Source of the DNA: Gemmatimonadota bacterium
GTDB lineage: Bacteria; Gemmatimonadota; Gemmatimonadetes; Gemmatimonadales; GWC2-71-9
DNA: 64,000 bases
Direction: 5' to 3'
NCBI GenBank assembly: GCA_036679645.1
Contig: JAZDCY010000098.1
Span: forward strand, 1-64,000
A model generated the notes under the pieces. That model did no database searches. It was given only the letters and a program-made list of their open reading frames with translations, and was not told the DNA's origin. Every line of letters begins with the position of its first letter. Within the stretch, counting starts at the first letter, position 1. Positions 15,627 through 19,049 of the stretch are shown here, one piece after another. Position numbers and translations under genes: made by a program.

Positions 15627-15947
15627 ATGGCGCGACGATCGATCCAGGTCGATGGCGAGCGGTGGGACGTGTATCCCTCCGGTCGCGTGACGGTGTATGA
15701 GCGCGACGAGTTTGCCCTCGTGTTCGAGAAGGGGACGGGCCCCGATCGTGTGCGCCGTGTGGCACGCTATTCACCGCTCGGAGCCAGGCGCCGTGACGCC
15801 TCGTTGGCGGAGCTGTCCGACGAGCGACTCATCGAGTTCTTCCGGCAGTCCCAGGCAGACTGGACCAGCCCGGATACCGGGTACGCGCGGCCCGCCCCCG
15901 CCCCCGCCCCTGCCCCCGCCCCCGGTCGTCCCGGTGCGTCGGGTTGA
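15627..15947 (+). CDS. Hypothetical protein (106 aa)
   Basis: ATG 3 nt after the E2 stop; protein-like; Pro-Ala repeat tail. Confidence 0.7.
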   Translation: MARRSIQVDGERWDVYPSGRVTVYERDEFALVFEKGTGPDRVRRVARYSPLGARRRDASLAELSDERLIEFFRQSQADWTSPDTGYARPAPAPAPAPAPGRPGASG

Positions 15948-16785
15948 CCTGCACCTCCACTCCACGGCGTCCGATGGACGGGAGGCGCCGGCGGACGTCG
16001 TCCGGCTGGCCACTGGGGCCGGACTCGCGGTCATCGCCCTCACCGATCACGACACGCTCTCCGGCGTCGCGGTCGCGCGGGATGCGACCCAGGGAACAGA
16101 CCTCCGCGTAATCGCCGGCTGCGAGTTTAGTGTCCGGGTCCCGTGGGGGGAGTTGCATCTGCTGGGGTATTTCCTCCCGCTCGATGACCGGGAACTGGAG
16201 GGTTTTCTCGCGCAGCAACGACACGGCCGGGCGGAGCGAATGGATCGCATTGTACAGCGGCTGCAGGCGTCCGGTGTCTCGGTGACGCTCGCCGATATCG
16301 TACAGCGCGCCGCCGGCGCCGCACTGGGCCGGCCACACGCCGCGCACGCGATCGTCCGGCAAGGAGCGGCGACGGACGTCAACGACGCATTCGATCGGTA
16401 CCTGGGGCGTGGGCGACCGGCCTTCGTTGCCAAGACGCTCCCGCCCGTGGCTGACGTTTCCGACCTCATTCGGCGGTGTGGCGGCGTCAGCTCAGCGGCC
16501 CACCTCAAGGACCGGGCGGGCCGAAGCGCGCTCGCGCGGTTGCGAGATGCAGGTGTGGACGGCGTCGAGGTGCTCCACCCCGCGCACGACGAGGCCACCC
16601 GGGTGCGCATTGAACGCCTGGTGCGGGAACTGGATATGCTGCCGACAGGCGGGTCGGACTGGCATGGCGGCGGTGTGGGTGGATTGGGGCGAGCCGGTCT
16701 GGGAGAGATACCGGTCCCTCACGAGTGGTTGGAAGCCATTGAGGATCTGCATAACGAGCGACGATCGGCGGAGGCTACGACATGA
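15934..16785 (+). CDS. PHP-domain metal-dependent phosphoesterase (TrpH/YciV-like)
   Basis: DLHLHSTASDG, ALTDHDT, HLLGY, GRPH and TGGSDWHG motifs; GTG start at 15934. Confidence 0.92.
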   Translation: MRRVDLHLHSTASDGREAPADVVRLATGAGLAVIALTDHDTLSGVAVARDATQGTDLRVIAGCEFSVRVPWGELHLLGYFLPLDDRELEGFLAQQRHGRAERMDRIVQRLQASGVSVTLADIVQRAAGAALGRPHAAHAIVRQGAATDVNDAFDRYLGRGRPAFVAKTLPPVADVSDLIRRCGGVSSAAHLKDRAGRSALARLRDAGVDGVEVLHPAHDEATRVRIERLVRELDMLPTGGSDWHGGGVGGLGRAGLGEIPVPHEWLEAIEDLHNERRSAEATT

Positions 16786-17234
16786 CGGCGACTGCGTTGA
16801 TTCGGGTGGGTCACACGGCTGCGGATTTCACGTTGCCGGGGCACGATGGGGCAGTGTATCGCCTTGCGGAGTTAAGGAAACAGGGACACGTGATGCTCGT
16901 CTTCTATCCGGGCAACAACACGCCTGGGTGAAACCGTCAACTCTCCGCCGTGCGCGATGAGATTGAGCGGTTTCGAGCGGCACATGTACGCCCCTTCGGC
17001 GTCAACCCGGCCGGACTCGAGAGCCACGCTAAGTACGCGGCCAAGTTCAGGTTCCCATTCTCGCTCCTTTCGGATGCCGACCGCGTCGTGGCCGGCGCCT
17101 ACGGGGCTCTGAAAACGGGCGGCAAGCGTATTCAGCGAACGGTTGTGCTGATCGGAAGTGACGGGGTTGTGCGGTTTGCCCGGCGTGGGGCACCCAAGCC
17201 GGCCGAAGTCCTGGCCGCAGTGGAGGAAGGCTGA
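16782..17234 (+). CDS. Peroxiredoxin (BCP/PrxQ-like), probable selenoprotein (UGA at codon 50)
   Basis: ATG 16782 reads ...ADFTLP...MLVFYPGNNTPG-TGA(16929-16931)-NRQLSAVRD...LLSD...QRTVVLIG...; the UGA occupies the peroxidatic Cys of the PxxxTxxC motif. Confidence 0.88.
16930..16974 (+). promoter_or_regulatory. Putative bacterial SECIS hairpin
   Basis: Manual pairing: gaaaccg/cggtttc, tcaa/ttga, ctc/gag, tc/ga, cgc/gcg, with a CGU apical loop, starting at the UGA. Confidence 0.7.
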
Positions 17235-17241
17235 CCGACAC

Positions 17242-17954
17242 ATGCCTAATCTCACGGGGAAGATCGCTCTGGTAACGGGTGGCGGGCGCAGGTTGGGGCG
17301 CGTGATCGCCGAAGCGCTCGGGGCGGATGGGGCGCGTCTGGCTATTCACTACCACCGCTCGGCCCAGGGCGCGATCGAGGTGGCGGACATCCTGGGGGGA
17401 GCGGCTCGCGCAACGACCTTCGAGGCGGATCTTGCCGACGCCCGAGCAGCGGCCGCCCTCCCGCAGCGTGTAGTGGAAGAGATGGGCGGGCTCGACCCTT
17501 CGGGGAGGTAACTCCCGAAGACTGGGACCACGTCATGGATGTAAACCTGCGCGCGTACTTCTTCGTGGCACAGGGTGCCGCGCCGTCCCTACGCGCTCGA
17601 GGTGGGGCCGTGATCAATATCTCCGACGCGTCGAGTGTCGATCCGTGGCCGTCGTACCTGCCGCACAGTGTGAGCAAGGCAGGCGTCCAGATGCTCACGC
17701 GTGCGCTCGCGCTCGCGATGGCCCCGGAAGTCAGGGTCAACGGCATCGTTCCGGGGGCGGTGCTCCTGCCGGAATCGCTCGACGCCGACGCCGAACGGCG
17801 CATTGGCGAGCGGACTCCGCTGCAACGTCTGGGGAGTCCAGCGGACGTGGTCTCCGCCGTGAGATTTCTGCTCGAGACCGAATACGCCACCGGCAGCACG
17901 GTGGTCGTAGACGGCGGTGCCACCGTGCGGCCCCGGGTGTGGGAGACGGCGTGA
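17242..17954 (+). pseudogene. SDR oxidoreductase (pteridine reductase/FolM-like), frameshifted by an internal deletion
   Basis: TGGGRRLG N-terminus ends GGLD, then the frame shifts near 17496 to PFGEVTPEDWDHVMDVN; the conserved LVNNA-type segment is missing. Confidence 0.75.
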
Positions 17955-18074
17955 ACCGGCACCACGTCTTCCTGTAGCGCTTACATTTAGGCAAGCGGCT
18001 GGAACCACGGTGATTGGTTTGCCGTTAACTAGGAGATTTGTGGCGACACCGTGTTGAAACGAGAGGTAATCCCT

Positions 18075-19049
18075 ATGACAGACCAAGGGACAGAGAAGAC
18101 AACCGAATACGATGTGATCATCGTCGGCGGCGGCCCCGCAGGGCTATGCGCAGCCCTGTACGCCGGCAGGGGCATGTTGAACGCGCTGCTCATCGAGCGC
18201 GGGCTGCCTGGCGGCGAACTACTCAATACCGAACTCATCGAGGACTATATTGGCTTCGAGAGCATCCTAGGCCGTGACCTCGCGCAGAAGATGGCAGACC
18301 ACGCAAAGAAGTTCGGCGCCAACATCGCGACCGATACGGTCGATGCGGTGGAAAAACAGGATGACGGTGCTTTCCGCGTCACTACCCAACTTGGCAAGAC
18401 CTACGTTGCCCCTACGGTGATCCTCACCGCCGGCGGAACCCCCACGAAACTGGGAATCCCCGGCGAGCAGGAGTTTGCTGGGCGTGGGGTATCGTATTGC
18501 GCGGTGTGCGACGGTGCATTCTTCAAGGGCGAGACTATTGCGGTGGTCGGTGGCGGGGACGCAGCGGCTGAGGAGGCGGACTACCTCACCCGGTATACGG
18601 AGAAGGTGTACCTCATCCACCGGAGAGACCGGCTTCGTGCCTCGCCGCTCCTCGCGCAACGCGTATTCAACAATCCCAAGATCGAGGTGGTCTGGAACAA
18701 GGTCGTCGAGCAAATCGAGGGCGAGGTGAAGGGCGTGCAGCAACTCCGGTTACGCGATACGTCGACGGGGGAATCGTCAACGCTCGCCGTGACCGGCGTC
18801 TTCATCTTCATTGGGTTCATGCCCAATACCGGAGTCATCCGGGGACACTTCGACCACGATCCGGAAGGCTACCTCGTAACCGACGATCACATGATGACAT
18901 CGATCGAGGGGCTGTTCGCCGCAGGCGATGTGCGGGTGCAGGTGACCCGTCAGATCACGACGGCGGTTGGCGATGCCACGACGGCCGCGATCGCGGTCGA
19001 GAAATACGTCACCCAGCGAAAGGAGCAGGCTGCGGTTGGCGCTTCCTGA
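18075..19049 (+). CDS. trxB: Thioredoxin-disulfide reductase
   Basis: GGGPAG, GVSYCAVCDG, GGGDAA, IHRRD and FAAGD motifs; SD GAGAGG before ATG 18075. Confidence 0.95.
   Translation: MTDQGTEKTTEYDVIIVGGGPAGLCAALYAGRGMLNALLIERGLPGGELLNTELIEDYIGFESILGRDLAQKMADHAKKFGANIATDTVDAVEKQDDGAFRVTTQLGKTYVAPTVILTAGGTPTKLGIPGEQEFAGRGVSYCAVCDGAFFKGETIAVVGGGDAAAEEADYLTRYTEKVYLIHRRDRLRASPLLAQRVFNNPKIEVVWNKVVEQIEGEVKGVQQLRLRDTSTGESSTLAVTGVFIFIGFMPNTGVIRGHFDHDPEGYLVTDDHMMTSIEGLFAAGDVRVQVTRQITTAVGDATTAAIAVEKYVTQRKEQAAVGAS

Follow-up and report, generated by a model that had tools for sequence, protein, structure and literature searches.

In a genome of the Gemmatimonadales, we identified an intact gene for a peroxiredoxin of the BCP/PrxQ type that carries an in-frame UGA at the peroxidatic position. 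The UGA is very likely decoded as selenocysteine (Sec), and the product, as judged from its sequence, would reduce peroxides with one catalytic selenol and would lack a resolving Cys. The gene lies in a 64,000-nucleotide stretch of contig JAZDCY010000098.1, which is referred to as the window; the genome that the contig belongs to is referred to as the source genome.

Gene structure and annotation

The reading frame opens at ATG 16782, which overlaps the stop codon of the upstream PHP-domain gene (16783-16785) as ATGA, and it runs through FYPGNNTPG-TGA-NRQL to a TGA stop at 17232-17234. The TGA at the catalytic position is the sole internal one, and the read-through translation contains QRTVVLI. 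The preliminary description of this DNA had placed the start at the same ATG and had read an in-frame UGA inside a 150-residue, Cys-free peroxiredoxin with this QRTVVLI segment; the sequence and its translation agree on each point. It had also predicted that standard gene callers would truncate the gene. The ORF scan places the start at GTG 16950, yielding a 94-residue fragment, and the NCBI record for the locus holds that fragment alone. The peroxiredoxin has thus been missed across a common bacterial order, because the public calls list only the 94-residue piece.

Table 1. Positions of the peroxiredoxin gene, its elements and neighbors in the window, and of other in-frame UGAs in the source genome (given as contig:position).
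Feature	Position	Strand	Remarks
PHP-domain phosphatase-like ORF	15697..16785	+	upstream; true start probably near 15930-15950
Shine-Dalgarno-like GGAGG	16770..16774	+	7 nt 5' of ATG 16782, within the end of the PHP gene; read from the sequence, putative in function
BCP/PrxQ-type peroxiredoxin gene	16782..17234	+	150 aa, in-frame TGA at codon 50, no Cys
Active-site motif P43-x-x-x-T47-x-x-U50 (PGNNTPGU)	16908..16931	+	from the translation; P43, T47 and position 50 invariant
Peroxidatic-site UGA, a likely Sec codon	16929..16931	+	TGA 189, TGC 18 of 207 distinct orthologous DNAs
Extended 45-nt hairpin	16930..16974	+	lower stem predicted, not conserved among orthologs
Conserved SECIS core	16941..16961	+	loop CGUGC 16949-16953, 17 nt 3' of the UGA, G at loop position 2
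Catalytic Arg119 codon	17136..17138	+	aligned to the Arg of ERSTF in BCP 5enu
Thioredoxin reductase trxB	18051..19049	+	downstream; TIGR01292 366.1 bits, cut-off 343.45
Further in-frame UGAs (L272-L282)	C62:31750, C32:6332, C66:56837, C42:36387, C8:101347, C8:100193, C7:217212, C37:61536, C78:6672, C17:30220, C17:31799		
Further position in the selenoprotein/SelD list	C5:100499		

Protein family and catalytic residues

The Pfam AhpC-TSA domain covers residues 9-132 and spans the TGA (99.3 bits). A structure predicted with Cys in place of Sec (pLDDT 96.3, pTM 0.91) has the thioredoxin-like peroxiredoxin fold, and the sequence contains both the Pxxx(T/S)xxC/U signature and the conserved Arg. The top 15 Foldseek matches of the model are all of the BCP/PrxQ type, with TM scores of 0.80-0.88 and an E-value of 1.8e-16 to 5enu; the five best solved relatives by sequence are of the same type (5enu, E 6e-19). 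An alignment of 30 rows shows no variation at Pro43, Thr47, position 50 or Arg119, and column 119 is Arg in every Sec and Cys ortholog aligned there.

The protein shares its length of 150 residues, the FYPxxxTPG motif and the catalytic Arg with BCP/PrxQ enzymes, including 1-Cys BCPs (PDB 5enu, 5epf and 3drn). It differs from them in having Sec where they have Cys, and in the NRQLS that follows the catalytic residue, where BCPs mostly have TxEAC. The resolving Cys of 2-Cys BCPs, located in helix alpha2 or alpha3, is absent, as is any other Cys; 172 of the 189 Sec forms described below are likewise entirely Cys-free. About one-third of PrxQ proteins lack a resolving Cys, according to the portion of the literature consulted (PMC4749874). 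The scores against the NCBIfam BCP equivalog PRK09437 (64.2 bits, cut-off 140) and the 233-position PrxU profile NF040737 (37.8 bits, cut-off 270) are both below threshold; therefore, we file the protein as BCP-like, and as neither a BCP equivalog nor a PrxU. PrxU of Eubacterium acidaminophilum, described by Sohling in 2001 and reportedly the experimental reference cited for the Sec-peroxiredoxin family, likewise contains Sec, but by this profile score it is not an ortholog. The 1-Cys enzyme AhpE of Mycobacterium tuberculosis also has one catalytic residue and a comparable size, with TM scores of up to 0.91, but it is a Cys enzyme with a weaker sequence match (E about 1e-10) and ranks below the BCPs in Foldseek. 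AhpE is recycled by a low-molecular-weight thiol system, and a small-thiol reductant would be a further likeness.

Protein matching found no canonical Cys BCP in the source genome, which is 92.67% complete, and BCP-type defense in this organism may therefore depend wholly on selenium. The matches to the peroxiredoxin within that genome are the protein itself, a second TxxU peroxiredoxin (contig C62) and a Prx6-like protein (C7).

Genomic neighborhood and putative reductant

Where the flanking sequence suffices, the peroxiredoxin gene is preceded by the PHP gene in 152/159 Sec loci and 17/17 Cys loci. A small protein (15627-15851, + strand) without a Pfam or NCBIfam match lies between an E2 subunit gene and the PHP gene, and it is found upstream of the latter in 157/159 Sec and 17/17 Cys loci. 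On the 3' side, an SDR gene (17242-17954, + strand) is split by a frameshift near 17496 into two halves that both match the Pfam SDR family. The frameshift probably reflects a deletion made in assembly or a difference between strains, since contigs from two public sequencing runs have 36 extra letters at 17496. Canonical BCPs of relatives were considered as positional replacements of the peroxiredoxin and rejected; their 7 loci have zero neighbors in common with it.

The preliminary description had noted trxB nearby, and the gene is indeed present downstream (Table 1). Where at least 2.8 kb of flank was available, a trxB-like match follows the peroxiredoxin in 62/64 Sec loci and 11/11 Cys loci, although a few matches near 40% identity may be paralogs. 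Its proximity is weak evidence of a partnership, because trxB adjoins the Cys forms too and belongs to a long string of housekeeping genes.

An outside thiol would have to resolve the oxidized Sec50, because the protein has no second Cys or Sec. In 1-Cys peroxiredoxins, the oxidized residue is resolved by a small thiol or another protein (PMC4749874, consulted in part), and a 1-Cys BCP is reduced by thioredoxin and better by glutathione/glutaredoxin (PMC8945050, in part). The source genome encodes two CGPC thioredoxins and BshC; no match over cut-off was found for Grx, GshB or YpdA, which at 92.67% completeness does not demonstrate their absence. From these gene contents, the position of trxB and the precedents for 1-Cys reduction, we place thioredoxin recycled by the neighboring TrxB first, as a candidate somewhat better than even, and bacillithiol second, as a possible but considerably less probable resolving thiol.

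A different role would be that of a redox relay or sensor, or an enzyme served by a partner beyond thioredoxin and bacillithiol, for example the lipoyl arm of the E2 encoded upstream, acting through an AhpD-like protein. A sucB-like E2 gene is found upstream, within the retrieved flank, in 103/159 Sec loci, and the source genome has two AhpD-like genes that read CFY-UGA; AhpD can feed peroxiredoxins from lipoamide proteins (PMC8945050, in part). However, the full catalytic set of a peroxiredoxin is retained and precedent points more directly to trxB as the partner; we regard such a role as improbable, though it is the best surviving alternative to a peroxide-reducing selenoenzyme.

Conservation of the UGA and the selenocysteine machinery

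Of 233 pooled loci, 225 covered column 50 and reached 110 bits or more in tblastn; after merging, 207 distinct DNAs remained. At column 50, 189 of them carry TGA and 18 carry TGC, and neither TAA nor TAG occurs. The alignment of homologs that had been proposed as a check on Cys/UGA pairing thus gave a clear pairing. The TGA is kept across orthologs at about 45-65% protein identity, with both halves of the gene conserved. All 80 genome loci found with an alignment are labeled Gemmatimonadota, mostly Gemmatimonadales or Gemmatimonadaceae. In a sample of the phylum, 97 of 401 genomes have an ortholog at E<=1e-30, 90 with a TGA in the match and 7 without; one unpublished TGA row (G175) was left out of later work. 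Among the 120 protein homologs listed, column 50 is Cys in 84, Arg in 1 and Ser in 1, while the remaining 34 miss it, being fragments that match from residue 53 or later only.

Profile searches of the source genome detected SelA (425.6 bits), SelB (359.2 bits) and SelD (366.1 bits, with an in-frame TGA of its own), and a tRNA-Sec with anticodon UCA (76.1 bits), each above the curated cut-off. The products of selA, selB, selC and selD, for which a search had been suggested, are thus all represented. For genomes without a retrieved locus, the TGA form was defined by a stop listed within the homology match. With this definition, selA is present in 70/73 TGA-form genomes, in 20/22 among near relatives and in 12/12 further rows (three of them repeats). 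The five TGA-form genomes without selA have selB in 5/5 and tRNA-Sec in 4/5 cases; every TGA-form genome checked has selA or selB. In six of the 13 Cys-form genomes, no selA, selB or tRNA-Sec was detected; six have all three, and in one, tRNA-Sec alone was detected. The six empty genomes are incomplete assemblies, and they are not independent cases, because five of them share one clade. Since 6/13 Cys-form genomes retain the full machinery, the use of Sec at this position is not obligatory. The Cys-form genome with tRNA-Sec (G418, locus L135), in which selA and selB were not found, may have lost part of the machinery or may be incompletely assembled.

These data also bear on whether UGA might instead specify Cys or Trp, either because the genetic code is altered or because a suppressor tRNA acts on it. 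ARAGORN listed neither a tRNA-Cys nor a named tRNA-Tyr in the source genome, probably because the assembly is incomplete (92.67%), and the missing tRNA-Cys is the one observation that would suit such a reading. Against it, the TGA forms terminate at any of the three stop codons, with TGA as the true stop in 149/189, the sole UCA-anticodon tRNA listed scores as tRNA-Sec, the in-frame TGAs sit at redox-Cys positions, and loss of the machinery accompanies TGC in the 6 genomes described above. We consider a reassigned UGA very improbable.

A non-exhaustive screen of the source genome detected, besides that of SelD, no fewer than 11 further UGAs that are in frame and located at redox-Cys positions (Table 1). 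They fall in three redoxins, an OsmC-like protein, two DUF3179 proteins, the two AhpD-like proteins, a DUF411 protein, an HMA domain and an APT-UGA-GGC protein without a family match. Ten of the 11 genes have a Pfam match, and nine of these matches span the UGA. A folding filter was unspecific in this genome of 64% GC (296 of 501 coding-like TGAs passed, and 73, mostly implausible, passed a stricter version); therefore, a further gene was counted as a selenoprotein only if a family match spanned its TGA. The source genome looks selenoprotein-rich. Sec-containing formate dehydrogenase is usually the commonest bacterial selenoprotein. Six Molybdop_Fe4S4 genes of the source genome (on C14, C9, C84, C60, C33 and C86; L257-L262) have no in-frame stop in the 260 residues examined, and the FdhA-like gene on C9 reads RLCHS, a Cys form.

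SECIS element

The preliminary description had proposed a 45-nt SECIS-like hairpin that starts at the UGA. A hairpin does fold at these positions with a G in its loop, but conservation is limited to its upper 21 nt and does not extend to the lower stem, in which the UGA is paired. Among the 189 TGA orthologs, the upper pairs are kept in 97-100% and five lower-stem pairs in 3-29%. The pairing with the UGA is therefore incidental, the whole 45-nt hairpin is ruled out as the SECIS, and the conserved element is the core at 16941-16961. Folding energy is weak evidence by itself, since the z-score of the 45-nt hairpin is -3.99 when the sequence is trimmed to it and -0.70 in an untrimmed 65-nt stretch.

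The location of the SECIS just 3' of the UGA is indicated by codon usage, because synonymous codons are fixed there in the TGA forms and relaxed in the Cys forms. At codons 54-58, the top codon accounts for a share of 0.99-1.00 among the TGA forms, compared with 0.56-0.93 among the Cys forms; at the other degenerate columns (n=62), the mean is 0.57 and the maximum 0.85. The share is 0.98-1.00 in 58 rows that were found without a pattern over this stretch. An identical 17-nt core occurs in 184/189 TGA forms, compared with 3/18 Cys forms. This synonymous fixation supports a constraint acting at the level of RNA. Covariation is absent, because the core is nearly invariant.

The bacterial SECIS consensus, as given in the part of PMC13188914 that was available, has a loop of 3-9 nt located 16-37 nt from the UGA, a G in the first two loop positions and an upper stem of 4-16 bp. 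Here, the loop is 5 nt (3 nt in an alternative register), the spacing is 17 nt, a G at the second loop position is followed by U, and the core has 6-8 pairs. The predicted energies are -6.5 kcal/mol for a 23-nt core (z -1.66) and -9.5 kcal/mol for a 33-nt stretch (z -1.23), with a consensus limit of -7.5; the two core registers are only 0.3 kcal/mol apart.

The miscalled start, GTG 16950, sits inside the SECIS loop. It could be proposed that the locus encodes two short proteins, of 49 residues and of 94 residues from this GTG, with the conserved RNA as the start signal of the second. The gene callers do give the 94-residue piece, the 34 listed homologs that miss position 50 are in line with it, and the GTG is fixed in all TGA forms with Val at position 57. 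However, the break would fall at the catalytic residue, the Cys orthologs are single chains (84 of the 120 listed), the GTG is enclosed in a hairpin loop, and the distant TGA ortholog L070 differs in sequence here and still retains a hairpin with GU in the loop. A split gene is accordingly less probable still than a reassigned UGA.

That the TGA arose from TGC or TGT by a nonsense mutation or a sequencing error is the least probable reading of all: TGC is one base from TGA, Cys orthologs exist and the assembly has an apparent deletion 260 nt downstream, but the conservation of the UGA column, with no TAA or TAG and both gene halves preserved over the identities given above, refutes it. Reads with TGC or TGT at 16929-16931 had been named as a possible sign of such an error; instead, a public-run contig (depth 94.8) is identical to the window over 16400-17496, the TGA included. 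This contig is not independent evidence, because it possibly derives from the source sample itself. The proposal of a 1-Sec peroxiredoxin is therefore supported, and none of the three outcomes named as refuting it (a genome without Sec machinery, reads with a Cys codon at the site, a lack of homologs with UGA at this column) was found.

Evolutionary history

A quick tree of 165 rows was calculated first. From it, 56 rows were picked by hand for a second tree with the catalytic column masked, comprising 31 of 117 Sec, 22 of 41 Cys and 3 of 7 canonical BCP rows; metagenome Sec rows are outside both trees. The canonical BCPs of relatives form a clade separate from the Sec peroxiredoxin (100/100). 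On the 56-row tree, the Sec label must change 11 times, and starred branches force 8 of these changes; a single Sec clade is rejected by an AU test (p 1.7e-11). Cys rows are found outside the Gemmatimonadales group, within which Sec rows branch first. The simplest reading is one gain of Sec followed by about ten reversions to Cys; alternatively, Sec may have been gained repeatedly. Three Cys-form orthologs (L103, L170 and L181) and none of the Sec forms have a second Cys at column 55, the resolving position in helix alpha2, where a 2-Cys mechanism was possibly regained after reversion.

Discussion

In the selenoprotein that we propose, SelB loaded with Sec-tRNA would bind the hairpin at 16941-16961 and Sec would be inserted at codon 50. 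With Pro43, Thr47 and Arg119 holding it in place, Sec50 would attack H2O2 or organic peroxides and be converted to the selenenic acid. If the insertion of Sec failed, translation would end after 49 residues; therefore, the output of the gene would follow the selenium supply.

Sec-peroxiredoxins of the COG1225/Bcp type with a TxxU motif have been known since 2001-2005. The surveys, each consulted in part, count 43 genes of the family (COG1225 (Bcp)/PF00578) in the Sargasso Sea (PMC1088965), 12 genes in 2006 (PMC1794560) and 91 genes in 78 organisms in 2016 (PMC5029168), and the family is listed as experimentally verified (PMC9312934 and PMC13188914, likewise in part). The protein described here shares with it the AhpC-TSA domain, the PxxxTxxU motif, the pairing of Sec and Cys homologs, a SECIS directly 3' of the UGA, and SelA, SelB, SelC and SelD. 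The parts of these sources that we consulted place the known members in Deltaproteobacteria, Clostridia and marine metagenomes, whereas the present ones are from Gemmatimonadales. The 2006 survey, as far as consulted, counted 5 Cys-to-Sec and 0 Sec-to-Cys events for peroxiredoxins (PMC1794560), whereas here one gain and about ten reversions are apparent. The string "Gemmatimonad" had no match in the main texts of three of the surveys, and their supplements may list such genes. A literature search of titles and the beginnings of abstracts found no paper on a Gemmatimonadota selenoprotein or a Sec-containing BCP/PrxQ, and no RNA data were listed among the public runs carrying the locus.

The finding extends the Sec-peroxiredoxin family to Gemmatimonadales; it is no new recoding or catalytic mechanism. 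The apparent addition from the sequences is a 1-Sec clade that spans the lineage and seems to have reverted to Cys about ten times. We think it reasonably probable that a distinct clade of 1-Sec BCPs originated a single time close to the base of Gemmatimonadales and froze a 17-nt SECIS core in its catalytic helix, and that it then reverted to Cys about ten times, in some cases with and in others without loss of the whole machinery. On this view, the present member is part of a redox selenoproteome that comprises at least 12 genes and showed no Sec formate dehydrogenase, and it would be recycled by thioredoxin or bacillithiol without a resolving residue of its own; matched Sec/Cys pairs in this history are about 60% identical. 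Many closely related Sec/Cys pairs are thus available to ask why selenium has been kept, and a peroxiredoxin without a thiol of its own offers a case for studying how a single selenol is regenerated and shielded from over-oxidation.
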